From Leucoraja ocellata (lineage: Eukaryota): a DNA stretch of 64,000 nucleotides. The notes under the pieces are model-generated. The model made no database searches. It had not been told where the DNA came from and saw only the letters and a list, made by a program, of their open reading frames with translations. The position numbers and the translations under genes are program-made. This document shows positions 25,726-39,231 of this stretch, in pieces. The stretch spans positions 4,154,001-4,218,000 of the forward strand of contig JAWMAR010000203.1 of NCBI GenBank assembly GCA_036785375.1. Direction: 5' to 3'. Within the stretch, counting starts at the first letter, position 1; each line of letters opens with the position of its first letter.

Positions 25726-27515
25726 TTTTTCGCGGTGGGTGTGGTACAATCTAGATCAGCGGAATCTTGATCGTTTGGCAGTTGGGCTGAAGAATGGTTG
25801 ATGTAATACAGTGAAATGTAAGGTGTTGATAAAAGGACATATCTTTACTCAGAGAGTGGTAGCTGTGTGGAATGAGCTTCCAGTGAAGGTGGTGGAGGCA
25901 GGTTCGTTTTTATCATTTAAAAATAAATTGGATAGTTATATGGATGGGAAGGGAATGGAGGGTTATGGTCTGAGCGCAGGTATATGGGACTAGGCGAGAT
26001 TATGTGTTCGGCACGGACTAGAAGGGTCGAGATGGCCTGTTTCCGTGCTGTAATTGTTATATGGTTATATTACATAGTTCAGCAATGTTACAACATTTTG
26101 AGACTTAAAAATTAAGTCTGCAATTTATCCCATCAGATAAACCATAAAAATAAGTAAATTGACACCTAATTCACTTTCATATCTTCAATATTTAAAATGT
26201 TATGGCTATTTTCATACTCAGAAATTAGCATCTTGTTCCATATTGCTAGATGCAGGAAGATTGTCCCCGATGTTGGGGAAGTCCAGAACAAGGGGTCACA
26301 GTTTAAGGATAAAGGGGAAATCTTTTAGGACCGAGATGAGAAAAAGATTTTTCACACAGAGAGTGGTGAATAGAAACATAGAAATTAGATGCAGGAGTAG
26401 GCCATTCGGCCCTTCGAGCCTGCACCGCCATTCAATATGATCATGGCTGATCATCCAACTCAGTATCCCGTACCTGCCTTCTCTCCATACCCTCTGATCC
26501 CCTTAGCCACAAGGGCCACATCTAACTCCCTGTTAAATATAGCCAATGAACTGGCCTCGACTACCCTCTGCAGCAGAGAGTTCCAGAGATTCACCACTCT
26601 CTGTGTGAAAAAGTTCTTCTCATCTCGGTTTTAAAGGATTTCCCCCTTATCCTTAAGCTGTGACCCCTTGTCCTGGAATCTCTGGAATTCTCTCCCGCAG
26701 AAGGTAGTTGAGGCCAGTTCATTGGCTATATTTAAGAGGGAGTTAGATGTGGCTAAAGGGGTCAGGGGGTATGGAGAGAAGGCAGGTACAGGATACTGAG
26801 TTGGATGATCAGCCATGATCATATTGAATGGCGGTGCAGGCTCGAAGGGCCGGATGGCCTACTTCTGCACCTATTTTCTATGTTTCTATATTGCTTTTCC
26901 ATTGAATTAACTCAAAAGCTGTGATCGAGGACAGTCAAAAGCCATAACTTTCTTAAAAGTTATTATAGATTGAAGCATTCGGAAACAAATATGAAACAAT
27001 CTTACTTGGATGACCTGAAATTCAAGCATATAATTAGTTAGTTACCTAATTGTAGCTAATTACAAAATTGACCGTTGTAACAGAAATAGTAATAAACACC
27101 CAGACTGTTTTTGAAAAATCAAAAATGTGATATTCTCAAGATCATAACTTTAATATTATTGTATTATATGCTGTGTCAGTTATAGATAGGTAAATAATTT
27201 ACAATTTCTAGCAAAAGACCAAGTCTTTATCGTTGGTACACAAAATGCTGGAGAAACTTAGCGGGTGCAGCAGCATCTATGGAGAGAAGGAAATAGGCGA
27301 CGTTTCGGGCCGAAAACCTTCTTTATCGTTTCTTGGTCCTCCAAAATATTCCAAATGGAATTTAAACTGGAGGTGGTGAAGGGAGGGCTTAAATCAGAAA
27401 GGGTTATTGGGAAGAAAGAGTTACTTTAAATTTAGTTGCATCTGGTTGGGTAACTATAGTTGGGTGGAGATTATTCCATGCTTTATTTGTGCGGGGGAAG
27501 AACAAATTGTTGTAT

Positions 27516-30500
27516 AGGGTGATTTCACTAAAGGTCACTGGAGCGTGGATCCGCACCCACGTGACCAAAATTCGCCGGTGGAGGACACATACGGGTCCCT
27601 GTACATGTTAGTGGATGGGAAAAGTCGCATTTTCCCACCCGTTAAAAACATAGAAAACGGCGAGGTTGAGAGCTGCAATTTTCTGTGCCAGTCGGGGTGA
27701 CTGTGAGGCACAGCTACCTAGATTTACAGGGAAAAAAAAATATTGCAAGTGAGGTAAATTCAAGAGGGAACTGAAGGTGCCTATCCACCGGAAGTCAGGA
27801 GCCGACAATTGCCGAAGATATTTAAAGGTCCAAAATAGCGGGAAATATCGCGTTTTCCCGCTGAATTTCATCAAAAGTAAGGCATTATATACTTTTTTAT
27901 CTTTATTCATTTGTTAGATGAGATTTTTTAAAAGTGAAAAATCACTCATTAAAAGTTCAAAATCGGCCATGGTTCTCAGGTTGGTTTTAACATGCAAAAT
28001 CAAAACGCCTCTGAAGCTGCATTTACCATTTAAATAATGATAAACTATCAATGCATTTTTAAATAAATTTCACTCAGATGCAAGCTAAGGAATGTGATAA
28101 TTATCAGCTGTCAGTTGGACAAAATTAGGACATTTTATTATTTGCCAAAATATATTTCTCAATGTTTCTTGTTTAAAGCCTGCACATTCACCCAAACAAC
28201 TTATGTATTACTTTCTTTATCATCTAATAACAGACAAGCCTGCAGCATGGAATGATGTCTACAATCCTGGTTGGGCACCCACTGTGAGCAGGATAGACAT
28301 TGCGCACTTTTGCACCCGTTTAAAACAGCTAAAATGGTCCTTTTTTGCGCTGTAAATAACTGTGGCAGTCGCGGTAACCGTGAGACACAGTTATCTTACT
28401 TTAGAGTTCCAAAGGTAAGGAAAGAAGAAGGTAAACACAAGAGGGAACTGAAGGGGCAACAGCAGCGGAAGTGGTTAGCAAACATTGGCCGTGGAGATAT
28501 GAAGATAGAAAAAATTGGGACTTATCGCGTTTGCTCGCTGCATTTCATCAAAAGTAAGTCATTATTGAAGTTTTATCTTTATTCATTTGTTATATAAAAA
28601 TCACCCAAACAACTTATTTCTTTATCATTTAATAACAGACAAGCCTGCAGCATGGGATAATGTAAACAATCCTGATTGGGCACCCACTGTGAATATGGGA
28701 CGCGGCGACGACAATGAGCAGGGTATACAACGTGCACAAGAACGCCATGCACGTGCAACAAGAAGAGAGAGTATTAAAGCAGATGTTGTCGCAGCTCAAG
28801 CATCTGTAGCTCTGCAAGTTGATGCTGAGCAGGCTGATGATTATGAGAACTTTGAACCGGTGCTGGAAGTACACCGTCAACTTGACATAGAAACACAAAC
28901 ACCAGTCAAAGAGACAATGGACACATCAACACAAACAGACATGTGTGGAGTAGACATAACAGTACTGGAAGCACAACTATACCAAAAAAATAAAGAGCTC
29001 ACCAAAGCTAGACAAGAAGCAGCCAAAATTAAGTTAACACAAGAAAGCCTTTCCAAGGATGACAAAAAGGTTAGGTTCTACACAGGTTTACCAACATTTG
29101 CAGTTTTGATGCTGGTCTACGATTATGTTAAGGACAAGCTCACCAAAAGACGTTCACTAACACATTTTCAGCAGTTGCTGATCGTCTTGATGAAGCTGCG
29201 ACTTGCAGTGCCTCATGAGGATCTTGCATATCGATTCCTTGTTAGTAATGCCACAGTATCGCGTGTATTCACTAGTGGGATTGATGCCCTTCATGGCTTA
29301 TCCAAGTTAATCATTTGGCCTGAAAGAGATGTTCTGTGGAAAATCATGCCCATGCAATGTCGGCGGACATTTGGAAAGCGTGTGGCAGTGATCATAGATT
29401 GCTTTGAAATATTTTGTGATAGACCTACGAGTTTAGAGGCGCGCGCACAGACTTGGTCTAACTATAAGCACCATAACACCATCAAATTCTTGATAGGTAT
29501 TACACCATGTGGTGCTATTTCATTTCTATCTGCAGCATGGGGGGGCAGAGGCACAGATAAAACAATTACACTTTCATCTCAATTTTTTGACAACCTGCTC
29601 CCTGGAGATGTCATTTTAGCTGATCGCGGTTTTGACATAAAAGATGCTGCAGGATTTCACGGGTGTCAAGCAGAAATCCCTGCATTTGTAAGAGGGAAAG
29701 CACAACTATCTGCGCTGGATGTTGAAAAAACTCGTGAAATAGCTAATTTACGCATTCATGTAGAGCGTGTCATTGGTGGGGTCAGGCAAAAATTCCTATT
29801 TCTAAGTCATACTGTGCCATTGGAGTACATGATTACCAACTCTGAAAATCAAGTACCCAAAATTGATAAAATTGTAAGGGTCTGTTGTGCACTTTTTAAC
29901 TTAAATGACTCCATAATGTCACAGTAGATGCAGACAATTGTACTTTAGCGTGTTGTGCAAATACGAACAATAAAAACTTTCAACAGTTTCTTGGCTCATA
30001 AGCATTTATTAAGTATGAAACTGCTAGTATTTGGCGAACCATTAAATAACAAACATTGTGTCAAAAGTGCACTTCACAATCTTTAACATTAGACTTAAAT
30101 ATAACTGTTTCACAAAGTGACTGTTGTGTTTTAAAGTGACAAAAAAAAGCCCATTACGTGGCTGTAAACAGTGCAAGGTAAACGTGGCATACAAATGAGA
30201 GACTTTGTATTTAACATAAACATTTTCAGCAGAAAACTTTAAAAAAAAGAATGTGCAGGCTTTAAACAAGAAACATTGAGAAATATATTTTGGCAAATAA
30301 TAAAATGTCCTAATTTTGTCCAACTGACAGCTGATAATTATCACATTCCTTAGCTTGCATCTGAGTGAAATTTATTTAAAAATGCATTGATAGTTTATCA
30401 TTATTTAAATGGTAAATGCAGCTTCAGAGGCGTTTTGATTTTGCATGTTAAAACCAACCTGAGAACCATGGCCGATTTTGAACTTTTAATGAGTGATTTT

Positions 30501-30922
30501 TCACTTTTAAAAAATCTCATCTAACAAATGAATAAAGATAAAAAAGTATATAATGCCTTACTTTTGATGAAATTCAGCGGGAAAACGCGATATTTCCCGC
30601 TATTTTGGACCTTTAAATATCTTCGGCAATTGTCGGCTCCTGACTTCCGGTGGATAGGCACCTTCAGTTCCCTCTTGAATTTACCTCACTTGCAATATTT
30701 TTTTTTCCCTGTAAATCTAGGTAGCTGTGCCTCACAGTCACCCCGACTGGCACAGAAAATTGCAGCTCTCAACCTCGCCGTTTTCTATGTTTTTAACGGG
30801 TGGGAAAATGCGACTTTTCCCATCCACTAACATGTACAGGGACCCGTATGTGTCCTCCACCGGAGAATTTTGGTCACGTGGGTGCGGATCCACGCTCCAG
30901 TGACCTTTAGTGAAATCACCCT
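27516..30922 (+). mobile_element. ISL2EU (PIF/Harbinger-related) DNA transposon with 674-bp near-perfect TIRs
   Basis: AT|AGGGTGATTTCAC...GTGAAATCACCCT|AT. TIRs 27516-28189 and 30249-30922; the ORF track gives identical 100-aa peptides from the two arms. Confidence 0.9.
28334..29927 (+). CDS. THAP-domain + DDE_Tnp_4 (HARBI1-like) transposase, 2 exons (28334-28553, 28639-29927), 502 aa, intact
   Basis: CAVNNC...CSLHF...WAPTV (THAP); IIDCFE, SNYKHHNT, ADRGF, RIHVER (DDE); 85-bp GT-AG phase-1 intron. Confidence 0.9.
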
Positions 30923-31872
30923 ATACATTTGTCTTTGTAGCTGGGATCACAAATTGGTTCGGATGCCCTCGTCTGCCCCTAATTGGTTTGGGTTTGGTGT
31001 AGGTTTTGTAGTCTATGTCGAGCTGACCATTTAACATTTCGTAAAAACAGGTCAAACGGTGAGCTTCACGTCTGTCTTGGAGAGGGTTCCACCCCAGAGA
31101 ATTCAGAAGTTTGGTGACACTCGCTTCTCTCTCACAGGTGTTAGTAACAAATCGAGCTGCCTGTCTTTGGACACGTTCGATGGAAGAAATGTTTTTATTT
31201 GTGTATGGGTCCCATGCTGCAACTGCGTAGTCCAAATGATGAAGATCAGTTGCTAGCTGGTACATTGGCATATCAAAATCAGTAGCACCATCATATTCCT
31301 CAGATTACAACCAGTAGGCAACTGTACACCTTGTTTTTCCTCAACTTTTCAATTTTGGCATTGTAAACTACAAGTTTTTGCTCTTCAAACCACGCATGAC
31401 ATGCCTTTCTGCCCACAACTTTCCCATTAAGAATGTCCTGTAGATCATCACATTTGGAGTAGTCCACATTCGGATAATCTTTGCGAATGCTGTTTAAATC
31501 AGTCTCTTTCAATTTTTTTCCTCGCTTTTTCCTCTCTTTCGTGTCCCGAGCATGCTCCTTGCTTTTCCGACGCTTGATGATTTCTGCTCTCAATTGCTTC
31601 TGTTTTTTATTCCATCTGTTCCTCTGCACTCTCCCCCATGTCACTGCCTTACAGAGCACCTCCTCCCTATGATGCTCCTCGTGATTATTAAGGGAATTGA
31701 CTGTTCTATTCTTGCAGGCCCGCATCCTACAGACAAATAACACATGGTGGCATTGGGAGATTTCTGTTTTGATGAGCTAATCATGCCCATTATCTCTTCC
31801 GCATCAATTTTGTGTGATCTTGCTGATGCAGTCTCCTCCTTCAGTTTCTCAGTTACATCAAGTACAAAGTAT

Positions 31873-32772
31873 AGGGAGGTTTCACGGCAATCGGGTCATG
31901 ACCCATGACCCGTGCTGTTGCTACGCTACTCCAAATGGATTACACGCAATGAACTGCAGGTAGGCACTTACCATTGTTTCCAGGGTAGAGGGCCCATTAA
32001 AACCCGCCGCAATTGTCAATTTTTGCGCTGTAAATAATTATGGAAATCGGGATAAGCGTGAGAGACATTTAGCCTACTTCAGGATTCCAAAAGTGAGGAG
32101 AAATGACAGTAGATAGAAGCGAGAGCTGAAGGGACAACAACAGCCAGAGTGCTTAGCGAACATTGGCCGTTTTCTCACTGCACGTCATCAACAGTAAGTC
32201 ATTATTAGTGTTTTTTCTTGATTCCTTTGGCATCTAAAAAGTTTCAGAAGTGATAAATCTGTCTGTAAATTTTTTAAATCGCCCATGGTTATCAAGTGGG
32301 GTTTTACATACAAAATGAAAACGCATCTGAAGAAAAATTTACAGCCAGATTTATCACTTCTGAGACTTTTTAGATGCCAATGGAATCAAGAAAAAACACA
32401 AATAATGCCTTACTTGATGAAATGCAGTGAGCAAACATGATAATTCCCAATATTTTCAATTCCGATATCTGCACATCCAATGTTCGCCAAGCACTTTAGC
32501 TACTGTTATCCCTTCAGCTCTCGCTTCCCTTTACCTTAATTTCGCTTCACTTCTGGCATTCTGAAGTTGGGTACATGTCTCTCACACTTACCCCGACTTC
32601 CACAATTTTTTACAGCGCAAAAATCAAACATTTTGGCGTTTTATAACAGGTAGGAAAGTACACGTTTCTTGCATTAATATCATATACTGGAAGTGACGGA
32701 TGTCCTCCAGATGGATTGAGCGGCTCCATACGTCAAGTCCTATGACCCAGTGACCTTACGTGCAACCCCCCT
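31873..32772. mobile_element. Non-autonomous ISL2EU-related MITE made of two inverted THAP-exon remnants; right-end fragment of the same family at ~36586-36808
   Basis: AT|AGGGAGGTTTCACG...CGTGCAACCCCCCT|AT. Removing it restores the host transposase frame (YSK/YFVL). Confidence 0.8.
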
Positions 32773-35425
32773 ATTTACTATACTACCTCTCCAACATAAT
32801 GATGACAGCTTGAAGACAGCTCCTCATCTTTGAACTGAACTGTGGATGTACTGGTAGCTCCCAAAGTTTTGTCAATGTGGCATCAAGATGTACCTCCTCA
32901 CCAAAGAAATCTTCCCTTGCTAATATCAAGTTGGCTGGATTATCTGTGGCTTCCTTTAGAGCAGCAATCACCCCTTTAACCACTTTGATGCCATCAACAT
33001 GATTGATCTGATTCTGGCTTGAAGTGTAGAAGCGCTTCACCCAAGGCCCAGTCAGATATTTGCCAAGTAAGTCTAATATCTGAAGTTCTACTTTTGCATC
33101 AGCCTGGGTGAAGTCATGGAGGATGGCGCTTTTCAACCCCCCACAGAATGTTCCGCTATTCAGCAGGGCAACAAAGTCATCATAATATTCTATGAGCTTG
33201 ACACTAATATGAAACAGTATGTACAATCTGTTGCCACGGTATCGTGGGAGGACAACTCGGGGGATGTCCCTGCCATCCAAAAATCCTTTTGGGTCCCCTT
33301 TTCCATTCTTGTACCGAAGTTTGCTCATCTTCAGTATGGCATTTACTGCTAGACAGTCTTACCCAAACAAGAATTTTCCTCCGGATTGTTTCTGCATTTT
33401 GAGGGCTGAGCGAACTGATGTTGCATTGGAGTCAAGAGGATGCAAGTGGCAGTAGAGCTCATTCAAAGATTTACCCCACTCACTACTCACAATCCTAATA
33501 GCAGCATGATTAGCTGCACACCTGTCACTCATTGTGTTTGAAATGTTGGCGATTATCTTTTGCCTGGTATCTTGAAAATCTGCTTGCTCATTGAAATGAG
33601 TGTAAGTTTTACACAAATTGTCAACTGTTTCGCAAATATGTTGTGCATAGTCCTCAACAGTTCCACCAGCCAATTCATCGACTGCTGCAGAAAGACATTT
33701 GTCTGTGGTGGTGAAGTGTACACTGTTAACGTGGGTCTCTTCCTGGGTGGTTGCATCAAAACCCACAGTCAAACCCTTTGTTGCAAGGAGCATCTCTGCT
33801 GTTTGCAACTCAGCAATAACTCCCAATTCTCGGGCCATAACTTCACCTGCACTGCGTCGAGGAACATGATCCAGATTAAGTCCACTCCGCTTGTAGAACT
33901 GGCTTATTAGGATTGGAATGTTTGCTGTGGGAGTTTTGTGTACAATACAGTCAAACACATGCATGCTTGTTGTTGAGGAGTAAGTTTTCTGGTCCACCTT
34001 TGACTTGACAATACTGGCAGCCTGCAGAGTTTTGATTGTTTCTTTGTGGACAAGATTGTCAAATTCGAGGCGTCTCACATCCTCTTCCATGTCCTTTAAA
34101 TTTTCATGAACTTTTCTGTACTGGTGAATTGAAACAGTTTTCCTCTTTTTCTTACTGTCATGAAACATCAGCAATTGTCTGTGTGCTTTTTTAAATCTCA
34201 AAAGCTCTGCCTTGGTTTCAGCAAGCTCTCGTGCAAACGTTTTCCCACGTAATTTGGTTTTGAGTGCCTGAATCTTTCTGTCCGTTAAATCTATTTGGTA
34301 TTGCTTTCTCTTTAAGGCTTGATTAACTACACATTTGGGAGTTTTCAACTGTGCCCTAAGTTCACTGATCTTTGTGTGAAACTTTATTGTAAGAGCAGCC
34401 CTGAATTCAGACAGAAAATTTAGTATTTTCTTCAATTTCTGTTTCCTTGGTTGGGGACCGCTTTTCATGGCTCCCGCAACGGCGACTTCTCCCGCCCGAG
34501 TTGCGGGGTCGAAGAGCTCCTGGAGCGGGGCCTTACAGCACCGCCCGCGCGGCTTGGAATGGCTGCGGGACTCTGCGAGCGCACGCCGGGGGCTCTAACA
34601 TCAAGAACCTTCCATCACCCGGCGACCTTCCATCACCCGGCGTGGCTTTAATGGCCGCGGGACAATCGCCATCGCCAGCCGGGGGCTTTGACTTTGACTC
34701 TGACATCGGGGGGGGGGGGGGGGGGTGGGGGGGAGAGTGCAGTGAAGAGATAAGTTTTTTTGGCCTTCCATCACAGCAATGTGATGGATGTTTATGTAAA
34801 ATATGTTGTGTCTTGGGTCTATTTGTTTGTAATGTATGGCTGCAGAAACGTCATTTCGTTTGGACCTCAAGGGGTCCAAATGACAAATAAATTGTATCTT
34901 GTATCTTCTGGAAGTTTAAAAGTTTCATCACAAATTTTCATAAATGCTCCAAGTTCCTTGTGATTGGTGAGTATTTTTAAAGTTATCAAAGCTAACGAGA
35001 GCCTTCACTCTTAACTTAACAGCACCAAATGAATAACCTTCTGCATCCGACAAAGAGAAATGTGAACTCAGCCATTTCTCTGTTTCAGGCAGACTTTTTC
35101 CAAACGAGGTATACAAGTACAAGAAATTCATATTTATCAGTTTCATCTAAATTTAATTATTAGATCTAAACATCTATCCATTTCTTAAGAAAAGGTTAAC
35201 TTTTTAAATAGTCTAAGTGTCCAAATAACATTCACACAAGAATTCACAATGTAACGTGATTTTTAAATGTCATTGTCATGAATTTATAGGCCAAATGGAA
35301 GGAATTTAATGTTTAATTCCCGTAAATTAATGGGCATTTAAATCATCTTGCGAGGGGTTTTGTAGAACGCGATCGATTGGAACGTTGCGGTTGCGATGAA
35401 TTTGAACCCCATATCGGCAGAAAAA

Positions 35426-36585
35426 ACAGATGGTGGCTCTTGGAACAACATCATCGATGCACTTACTTATGTAGCCTGTGACAAACTGTGTAATCGTTGA
35501 TGCTGCCTTCTGCTGCATCCTCAAACATCTGCCAGTCAGTTTTGTCAAAGCAGTCCTGCAAGACCTCATCAGCCACATTGTTCCATTTGTAAATGTCCCT
35601 GGAAACTGTTTCTTCTGTTTTAGTTTCTGCCTGTATGCAGGCAGCAGTAGGGTGGAACAGTGGTCTGGCTTCCCAAAAGCCGGGCGGGGGATGTATCGCT
35701 CTGAATGGGGTGTAACAATGGTCTAAGGTCTGCTCTCCCCTGATGGGAAAAATGATATGTTGGTAATATTTTGGGAGAACCTTCTTCATGTTGGCTCCGT
35801 TGAAGTCTCCCAGAACAATGACCGCAGACTCAGGGTGGGAGTTCTCCAGCTCATTTACAGTCCTATACAGTTGGTCCAGGGCTAGGGTTTTATCAGCGTG
35901 TGGGGGGATGTAAACAACTGTAAGGAGGACTGAGCTGAACCCGCTCGAGAGGGTGAACAGTCTAGCTTTAATGGTCAACAGCTCCAGAACCGGGGAGCAG
36001 TGAGTAGTGAAAACGCAGACATCTGTGGCCCACAAAGAGTTAACCATAAAGCATACTCCCCCCTCCTTTCTACTTGCCTGATTCCTTCCTTCTGTCTTGT
36101 CGGTAGACGGAAAAACTCTCCGGAGTTACGGCACAGTCGGGTACGCTGGTCTCCAGCCACGTCTCTGTGAACACCAGAACACAGCATTTCTTAATGTCCC
36201 GATGGTGTTCGATCCGTGCGCGCAACTCGTCCAGTTTATTATCCAGGGATTGCACATGAGCTAGCAGGATGCTGGGCAGAGGAGGTTTGTTGTTTCTTCG
36301 CCGACTTCTGCACAGAACGCCGACACGCTTCCCTCTCTTAGCGTTCCTCCCCCACCGCCGTGCAGGTAAGCAAAGCACTCAGGGGAGGCTGTCATCCGTG
36401 ATATCAATAACCAGCTTAAAGTCCCCGTTGGCTGCCTTTCTTATCTCCAAAAGTGATTGTCGATCATACTGAATGCGTGAAAGAACAGTATGTACAAAAA
36501 GAACAAGTAATAAAAAATAAATACATGCAAGTTTGCTGAGATGACTCGAAGCTCTCGTCAGTGCAGCCATCTACACGGCGCACAG
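35426..36585 (-). mobile_element. 5' (APE) fragment of a second Rex1-type LINE
   Basis: [36 protein letters not shown] motifs, frameshifted. Confidence 0.85.
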
Positions 36586-39231
36586 GAAGGTTTTTACATA
36601 CAAAAAGAAAACACCTCTGAAGCAATATTTGCAGCCAGGTTTATCACTTCTGAGACTTTTTAGATACCAAAGGAATCAAGAAAAAACACAAATAATGCCT
36701 TACTGTTGATGAAATACATTGAGCAAACGCAATAATTCACAATATTTTCAATCCTCCGGCTCCGTGCGTCAAGCCCTATGACCCAGTGACCTTACGTGCA
36801 ACCCCCCTATAGGAACCTGAGGTGTATCTTTTTTACACAAAGGGTGGTGGGTGCATGGAGCAAGCTGCTGGAGGTGGTTGTTGAGGCAAGTTCTATCCCA
36901 CCATTTAAGAAACCTTTAGACTGATACCCGGATACGACAGGTTTAGTGGAATATGGGCCAAACGCAGGCAGTTGCGATTAGTATAGATGGGACACGTTGG
37001 TCGGTGTGGGCAAGTTGGGTCAAAGGGCCTGTTTCCAGGCAGTATGACTATGACTAATTGCCCTCGATACCCTGTTCCCTGTGGCTCTCCCTTGTGTCAC
37101 AATCTTCACAAAGAAATGTCTTGAGTTTTTTTACACAGATCTGTTGAATTGGAATTATGAATAGAAAGTGTTTGAAGAATGATTGCAGGCACAAGGATCA
37201 GCAGATGCTGGATGGATAGAAAGGAGATGAGGGGAAATTTCTTCAGTCAGAGGGTGGTGAATCTGTGGAATTGCCACAGATGGCTGTGGAGGCGTAGTCA
37301 CTGAGTATTTTTTAAAGCAAAGAATGACAGGTTCTTGATTAGTAAGGGCATCAAAGGTTACGGGGAGAAGGCAGGAAAATGTGGTTGAGAATGAAAAATC
37401 GATCAGTCTTTATTGAATTGCAGAGCAGATTCAATGGTGTGAATGGCCTAATTCTGCTCCTATGTATTATGGCTTTATGCTGAGTAACTCAGCGGATCAG
37501 AGAGCATCTCTCGACAATATGGATAGGTGACGTCTCAGGTCGCGACCCTTCTTCACACTGATTGCCGTGGAGGCGGGAGGGGGGGGGGGGGGGGTGGGTG
37601 GTTGAAAATTCGGTGAGGGACGGGACAAAGCCTGGCAAGTGATAGGTGGATACAGGTGGGGGGGGGGGGGGGTTGACTGACAGATGGGTGGAGTCAGTTT
37701 ACAATGAGGGGAAGAGATGGGAAACTTTGATAGGAACCTGAGGGACAACTTTTTTCACACATAGAATGGTGGGTATTGTTCGATTAACTTTTCGTAACTT
37801 TGTCGGCACCAGAAATGTTACAACTCTTTGTGTACTGCCTAGGCGAGGTCTGCTGTATGATTTTACCGGATTGTATGCAACACAAAACATTTCACTACAT
37901 GTGACGATAAAATATCATTCATATGGACATGACTTCAGAATTAAGGGACAGAAGTTTAGGGGTAACATGAGGGGGAACTTCTTTACTCAGAGAGTGGTAG
38001 CGGTGTGGAATGAGCTTCCAGTGGAAGTGGTGGAGGCAGGTTCGTTGGGTTCATTTAAAAATAAATTGGATAGGCATATGGATGAGAAGGGAATGGAGGG
38101 TTATGGTATGAGTGCAGGCAGGTGGGACTAAGGGAAAAAAGTTGTTCGGCACGGACTTGTAGGGCCGAGATGGCCTGTTTCCGTGCTGTAATTGTTATAT
38201 GGTTATATGGAACAAGCTGCTGGAAGAATATATTGAAGCAGGTACTATAACAATGTTTAAAAAATATTTGGACAGGTACCTGGATAGGATAGGTTTTGAG
38301 GGATATGGGCCAAATGCAGGCATGTGGGACTAGTGTAGATGGGACATGTTGGTGGGTGTGAGCAGGTTAGGCCCAAGGGCCTGTTTCCACACTATACAAC
38401 TCTATGACTCTAATCTAAGTGGAGAAGTGGAATGTAAAGCCGCAGGGAGGGATATAGGTGGATGGTGACAGGAAAGGTGGGAGCGGGCTAGTGGGAGAAA
38501 GGGGTGCACACTGGGGGAAGGGAGTAAAGGCACAGGAAATTTAGGGAGAGACCTGGGATCAACTGCATCTGACAGAAACATGAAGGCATAACTGCACAAC
38601 ATAAGAAGGAAACCGAGTGGAAATTCTCAGAACAAACCCCTCAACAGATGAGCCACGGAGAGGTGGTCGGGCCGTGGAAAACTGGAAGTTAATAATGATT
38701 TAAAGATACAAAATGGAGTCTGCTGAAACTAAGACAAGCTTCTATTAAATTGCAAGGCCAGCGAAATGCACTAACATTTACCTTTCAGTACATTAACAAA
38801 GCTAGTACAAGTTTCACGAATGTCTTCTCTACAATGTAAACATTGAGAGAGAATTCAGACTAAGATTATGATGTGCGTCATAAGTAGAAAAAACTAAAAG
38901 CTTGTTCGGCCAAAATATCCTCTATCAGAAGACCCTGTCAATCTGCTGTCAATCTTAAGGATCTGTCAATCTTAAGAAGCAAGAGACTGTACTAACTATA
39001 GATAACGTATTGCTGAATCGTCGAATAAAGGGGTATATATACATGTACTGAAGTAATTGTTCCTGGATCGATCGCCTCAGCGCAGAGGGGGAACAAGGAG
39101 GGAGGGAAGAGAGAGACTAAGACTTTTGCCTCCATCACAGTGAGGAGGTGCTTGGTGAACTCACTGTGGTGGATGTTAATTTGTATTTATTGTATGTTTT
39201 GTTATTTATTATTATAGTGTATGTCTGCAGG

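Follow-up and report, generated by a model that had tools for sequence, protein, structure and literature searches.

A skate ISL2EU-type transposon whose long terminal inverted repeats appear to derive from its own THAP exon

Why should the long terminal inverted repeats (TIRs) of a DNA transposon resemble the beginning of the very gene that they enclose? The question is raised by an element with a THAP-domain transposase that we analysed in 64,000 nt of Leucoraja ocellata DNA (hereafter the window; contig JAWMAR010000203.1). A previous sequence-only reading of this locus had proposed that the TIRs are a decayed copy of the element's THAP exon. By combining alignment within the window with a search for relatives in the same genome, a genealogy of THAP-exon copies and RNA reads from a related organism, we arrive at a similar answer, in which the long TIRs appear to reproduce the ancestral 5' end of the element in non-coding form, though by a different route from the one first suggested. 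The features on which the argument draws are collected in Table 1.

Table 1. Layout of the element and its flanking duplication, in window coordinates.
Feature	Position	Strand	Remark
Element (ISL2EU-type DNA transposon)	27516-30922		3407 bp
AT target-site duplication, left	27514..27515		AT flanks 14 of 16 two-ended copies, on both sides; paralogous empty sites with a single AT
Left TIR, portion paired in the window copy, 674 nt	27516..28189	+	1 mismatch to right arm
Outer TIR zone, fast-evolving	27516..27880	+	Conserved over its initial ~50 nt; a block around 27585-27605 is hypervariable
5' leader and THAP exon 1, decayed copy	27626..27876	+	No start codon, no full frame
Inverted repeat, 9-bp stem, two TTTSSCGC motifs	27837..27862		Perfected stepwise over subfamilies
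Ancestral long intron, 357-nt copy	27877..28233	+	GT..AG retained; 27876 joined to 28234 in 4 RNA reads (related organism)
Remaining left arm, exon-2 remnant	28190..28313	+	Pairs only in full-length relatives; terminates at GCGCACTTT microhomology
Transposase exon 1 (THAP)	28334..28553	+	PF05485 E=1.3e-10
Transposase intron, 85 nt	28554..28638	+	Shortened relative to TIR copy
Transposase exon 2 (HTH_Tnp_4, DDE_Tnp_4)	28639..29927	+	E=1e-14 and 3.9e-48
Intergenic remnant	29928..30244		AATAAA at 29969 (+) and 30005-30010 (-)
Deletion junction	30244..30249		~2.37 kb gone: YqaJ gene, relic right terminus, inner right arm
Right TIR	30249..30922	-	1 mismatch to left arm
AT target-site duplication, right	30923..30924		As for the left duplication

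The two inverted arms match over 679 nt without gaps (27511-28189 and 30249-30927), and the single mismatch noticed by eye in the earlier reading is indeed the only one (27574/30864); because five of the matched bases belong to the flank, the TIR proper measures 674 nt. Inside the left arm, 27626-27919 aligns with the coding THAP exon 1, its donor and the start of its intron (28303-28595) at 70.9% identity over 296 columns (E=7.6e-35), with a local score of 241 that lies far above both the mean (28) and the maximum (45) of 300 shuffles, which makes significant a resemblance first proposed from the letters alone. Further inward, 28188-28287 and 28601-28692 share 86% identity across 100 columns (E=2e-29), bearing out the proposal that 28186-28290 duplicates the intron end and exon-2 start. 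Both splice sites of the long intron are preserved in the TIR copy, whereas the coding gene carries a deleted version of it. Three upstream ATGs lie within the exon-2 remnant of the left arm.

The gene beside this dead copy was said to be intact, and its spliced ORF does translate into 502 aa with no stops, within which Pfam identifies the THAP, HTH_Tnp_4 and DDE_Tnp_4 domains and motifs fall in the region of D327, D402 and E449. Among database proteins the closest is one annotated in the little skate, which is identical at 496 of 502 aa. Other matches descend from skate proteins (70-99%) through three others (53-70%) to full-coverage relatives at about 42-48%, which come mostly from marine invertebrates and ticks where named and are patchily distributed. 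A search of the elephant shark found no ISL2EU (PMC9179366).

To place the TIR copy among its homologues, we used a tree of 80 THAP-exon sequences over 299 columns, taken from the window and 50 of 166 loci with matches of at least 230 columns, and rooted on older single-THAP subfamilies treated as the outgroup, which split off at 100/100. On this rooting, the coding exons of the family are sister to a ladder of TIR copies, whose identity to the coding exon falls from 85-88% in MITE left ends and 79-82% in the MITEs that follow to 76-78%, 74-75%, 73% and finally 70-71% in the arms. Summed from the split, branch length amounts to ~0.35 for the window TIR versus ~0.07 for its coding exon. This placement therefore indicates that the TIR descends from the element's own ancestral exon, in agreement with the coding-to-TIR conversion originally put forward, and the MITE subfamilies record successive stages in the decay of the exon copy.

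Searching the genome itself, with the best 40 of 3951 candidates scored, we recovered relatives of 5.7-5.8 kb at 98-99% identity to the window element. These full-length relatives (L030-L034) have arms of ~800 bp that are 95.5-99.75% identical within an element; two of them, L030 and L032, have more divergent arms (95.5% and 97.4%), which are not paired in the tree. TIR length thus goes from short ends in older subfamilies to ~800 bp in the full-length relatives and 674 nt in the window copy, which, lacking their second gene and 120 bp of their right arm, is a deletion derivative. The deletion junction recurs at three other places, twice on C171 and once in a short derivative on C20. Flanks of the two C171 copies are alike, so that these are probably one duplicated insertion, but they are unlike those of the window copy, which suggests that the deleted form has itself moved, presumably with help in trans. 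Empty sites paralogous to L031 hold a single AT (104 spanning matches), in a comparison that covered 11 copies, 5 of them without spanning matches and two with poor ones.

That all five of these relatives lie on other contigs, with both arms and differing flanks, indicates that the second arm is genuine. An assembly artefact, whether in the second arm or at the tandem junction, would agree with the fact that none of the contigs listed bridges the deletion junction (those listed from organism A stop at 30240-30244). Yet the tandem junction motif is found at 11 places in the genome and the deletion junction at 4, the flanks of two-armed relatives are distinct, and one short-read contig (run X4, which may be the assembled sample) bridges the tandem junction without differences; we regard such an artefact as extremely improbable.

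What the window copy has lost is a gene that full-length relatives carry convergent to the transposase. In L031, where both ORFs are intact, ORF2 has its own ATG and encodes 636 aa with a YqaJ exonuclease domain (PF09588, E=2.5e-21), its profile matches being YqaJ and viral alkaline exonuclease only. By eye, ORF2 (L031:2040-3620) also has a Cys/His motif near its start that we take to be SWIM-like and a Cys-rich C-terminus that we take to be PHD-like, neither of which was reported by Pfam. Insertions with retroelement-like ORFs and direct repeats of ~210 bp break up the older long-TIR copies L035, L042 and L043.

On the basis of its domains, the YqaJ gene of its family and its AT duplication, we assign the window element to the ISL2EU type (PHIS). 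ISL2EU elements are described as having a THAP-HTH-DDE transposase, a YqaJ second ORF and AT duplication (PMC4482050, PMC4122938); likewise, the window transposase contains all three domains, the YqaJ ORF is present in L031 and deleted in the window copy, the duplication is a 2-bp AT and the host is an animal. The TIRs differ: those reported for 25 ISL2EU families measure 6-259 bp, a reported range rather than a definition (PMC4482050), whereas those of 674-800 bp here are about three times the longest reported, in a genome whose older subfamilies are short-ended. They differ further in being apparently made from the element's own exon-intron module and in having a relic terminus buried inside. 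An A-AT-T target context and a TIR starting GG are given as usual, not defining, features of ISL2EU (PMC4482050), while the flank here is mostly T-AT-A, the base preceding AT being T in 12 of 16 copies and A in 3, and the element end reads AGGG if AT is the duplication. Differences from PIF/Harbinger lie in the AT duplication, which is not a 3-bp TWA, and in an ORF2 that is YqaJ, not Myb/SANT. Elements of the P superfamily make an 8-bp target duplication. Galileo is reported to have a P-type transposase and a 7-bp duplication (PMC3573991), as against a DDE_Tnp_4 transposase and 2 bp in this family.

The route by which the long TIRs arose is suggested by a terminus-like motif that full-length elements carry 920 bp in from their right end, where it precedes the ORF2 ATG by ~100 bp. 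We surveyed this relic terminus at 30 loci, of which 22 reached it: it is internal, with a constant outer neighbour, in all 9 long-TIR loci and the true end in all 13 older loci, which have 9 distinct flanks. In L041, for example, an older element of ~4.7 kb that is 81% alike, there is just one THAP exon and an intron of ~330 nt, the ends are short and differ from each other, and the element finishes at a terminus of the relic type. Outside the relic, the long-TIR family bears an inverted left-end module of ~920 bp, comprising terminus, leader, THAP exon 1, long intron and a deleted piece of exon 2, and exon-2 homology in this right arm extends ~110 bp beyond the point at which the left arm ends. 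The left arm itself corresponds to the outer ~800 bp of the right-end module, the joint being a 9-nt microhomology that lies ~25 bp ahead of the transposase ATG; the arm stops at GCGCACTTT, which is present in native leaders just before the ATG as well as in the exon-2 remnant. MITEs L148-L165 contain the same deleted exon-2 piece, reaching past the left junction. We also considered whether the right arm could be a THAP exon belonging to the exonuclease gene, and ruled this out, as ORF2 starts at an ATG of its own, ~100 bp inward of the relic terminus, and its large exon yields no THAP match.

We propose that a left-end fragment joined to the outside of the original right terminus, that the new outer termini took over as functional ends, and that the right-arm copy would later have replaced the native left end through a template switch at the 9-nt microhomology. 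Template switching or break repair between arms may be the cause both of this copying and of continued homogenisation. The module would now act as a transposase-binding end and, because it replaced a native left end of 110 bp, likely also as a promoter or 5' leader; the transposase promoter probably lies within it. A right-first, left-second order of addition is likely, and it is one that we infer, because no element that retains the native left end while already bearing the added right module was present among the loci fetched.

The reverse order had been favoured in the sequence-only reading, namely that an in-situ tandem duplication of the 5' module came first and that its upstream copy was afterwards mirrored at the 3' end. 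The window by itself does show a tandem pair, and a TIR copy that is sister to the element's own exon would fit; in full-length relatives, however, the right module exceeds the left in length and abuts the buried terminus, the left arm is a truncated copy ending within the exon-2 remnant at the microhomology, and the MITEs carry the same deleted module beyond the left junction. Since mirroring the left arm would leave the additional ~110 bp of the right arm unaccounted for, we consider 5'-first duplication unlikely. We instead hold with good confidence, for the account as a whole, that the window element is an ISL2EU-type copy without its exonuclease gene, whose own 5' end was added on the right and then copied to the left.

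Elsewhere in the window, 31872-32773 holds an older non-autonomous relative of ~0.9 kb with an original right-type end, a left-type end and a pair of inverted remnants of the THAP exon, which match one another at 72% and the coding exon at 75%; it is an independent case of left-end sequence beside a right end. A short left-end fragment of the same older subfamily lies at ~36580-36810 (80% over 100 bp). Upstream of the element, 26280-26890 consists of nested inverted repeats (87-100%) from LINE-like 3' fragments.

Beyond their origin, the arms have a history of joint change. In seven of seven element pairs, 17-74 columns differ by element, with a state common to both arms, and 0 by side; the arms of one element evolve in concert and are repeatedly homogenised. 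As a result, arm identity does not date an insertion, and the near-identical TIRs lose the value as an age clock that they had been given, although the youth of the copy stands by virtue of the ~99% identity between copies. It is possible that assembly polishing inflated arm identity in the youngest copies, but lineage-specific shared differences could not be created in this way.

Change in the outer part of the arms is furthermore fast. When real copies are compared pairwise, with the C42 and C156 copies as references, divergence amounts to 12-17% in the outer 115 bp and 14-15% in the pseudo-exon, as opposed to 3.5-7.2% for fourfold sites and 4-7% for introns and intergenic DNA. The ratio of outer zone to interior, with the hypervariable block removed, is 3.0-5.0 (p<=2e-5 in five of five comparisons, which share branches and are non-independent); this excess declines from the end inward, and the inner TIR is not significantly above the interior (p=0.095-1). 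Three candidate causes can be set aside. CpG decay is ruled out by CpG transitions making up just 3 of 73 differences from the C42 copy and by CpG counts that do not fall; GC-biased conversion is unsupported (29 vs 19 and 33 vs 26 sites); and homogenisation itself affects the inner TIR too, which is nevertheless not significantly faster.

Along the series, the local fold energy of the outer 364 nt drops from near -83 kcal/mol to near -108 kcal/mol, with z going from -0.5 to -3.4 on 25 shuffles per sequence, and the same changes placed at random on three older arms reach the fold energy of the window in 0, 1 and 0 of 120 sets. The count of TTTSSCGC motifs, which in the 27837-27862 stem we take to be E2F sites, runs 0, 1, 2 over the same series. 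Selection on a regulatory role is our preferred cause of the fast outer change, at about an even balance with end-biased mutagenesis. A purely mutational origin, in which transposition or repair exposes single-stranded ends, possibly resected by YqaJ, and template switching perfects quasi-palindromes, is a serious possibility to which we give somewhat less than an even chance. It would account for an excess that diminishes inward without significantly elevating the inner TIR, for differences that are clustered, transversion-rich and rarely at CpG, and for fold energies lower than random placement gives; but the transversion excess is significant in just one of five comparisons, and the 9-bp stem reached perfection gradually, through several subfamily steps, creating two TTTSSCGC motifs as well. 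The fuller form of the selective reading, which we put forward tentatively and consider less likely than not, is that the dead THAP exon has become a symmetric regulatory end under positive selection, its arms kept identical by repair, with the outer 365 bp changing at 3-5 times the neutral rate while gaining hairpins and paired E2F-like sites, the MITE subfamilies recording the steps and YqaJ perhaps driving the copying between arms.

A regulatory role of another kind was also suggested for the arms, in that read-through into the right arm would yield hairpin or antisense RNA against the THAP exon and hence self-silencing. The RNA evidence that we have comes from three runs of a related organism, whose reads are mostly 90-95% alike to the window element (99+ identity in 70 of 746, 26 of 1163 and 114 of 1661) and for that reason report on relatives of the window family; no transcript of the window family itself was found in these three runs. 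The relatives splice exon 1 to exon 2, and the joint over the ancestral intron of the TIR copy occurs as well (Table 1). A transcript over both arms would fold across 674 nt, and in run X16 TIR-like sequence is covered on both strands while the coding part is covered on one; moreover, the genome contains palindromic MITEs of 1.1-1.4 kb with two TIR arms head to head (among them L045, L047, L048, L049 and others of 1.3-1.4 kb), a layout like that of Mu killer. However, these reads, mostly 90-95% alike, are not of the window family, the AATAAA at 29969 precedes the right arm, the RNA depth of relatives drops to about zero past 29988, and in full-length elements a whole convergent gene separates transposase and right arm. 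The arm also matches the exon at only 71%, having fallen from 78% over time, with exact exonic runs of 17 nt at the longest. We thus find self-silencing by the window copy to be weakly supported and improbable. The palindromic two-arm MITEs would be better candidates for hairpin RNA, which would target the arms more than the exon. The youngest hairpin motif has 26 exact occurrences.

Replacement or extension of transposon ends is already known, and the mechanism class proposed here would accordingly not be new. Galileo of Drosophila mojavensis is reported to have long TIRs extended by recruited internal sequence, with repair between arms (PMC3573991), and resembles the present family as a THAP transposon with long recruited TIRs and two-TIR non-autonomous copies. 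It belongs to the P superfamily, though, and is described as recruiting the spacer regions F1/F2, with the longest TIRs in copies without a transposase ORF (PMC3573991), whereas here a coding exon and intron seem to have been recruited and are present in an element with both ORFs intact (L031). Similarly, the Rhodnius mariners Rpmar49 and Rpmar17 have long TIRs with transposase homology and one end replaced by the other, but are reported as non-autonomous, with the coding part lost (PMC4678618), unlike the skate element, in which the coding THAP exon is kept beside its dead copy. In maize, MuDR likewise has two convergent genes between TIRs that contain promoters, and in Mu killer the 5' portion of the transposase gene is duplicated in inverted orientation, much as in the palindromic MITEs here; promoter and silencing functions are shown in that system (PMC3440606) and putative here, in arms that resemble the coding exon at only 71%. 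KolobokP is composite-like, though its repeats are direct (PMC9587614). Our literature search, which was incomplete and ran without Repbase and without the supplementary tables of PMC4482050, returned no long or exon-derived TIRs in ISL2EU. What appears to be new is the recruitment of an exon-intron module, the survival of the coding exon beside it, and ends that change faster than neutral sites.

Taken together, short-TIR ancestors, a ladder of MITEs, long-TIR elements and deletion derivatives form a graded series within one genome, along which one can trace, step by step, how a long TIR was born out of coding DNA. For ISL2EU, with no proof of activity reported as of 2022 (PMC9179366), L031 and its two intact ORFs make the roles of the YqaJ exonuclease and of long TIRs testable. 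More generally, TIR identity is no clock where arms are homogenised. Arms races over end sequences are known for retroelements, and, if the fast change of these TIRs reflects selection, it would represent their counterpart in a DNA transposon.
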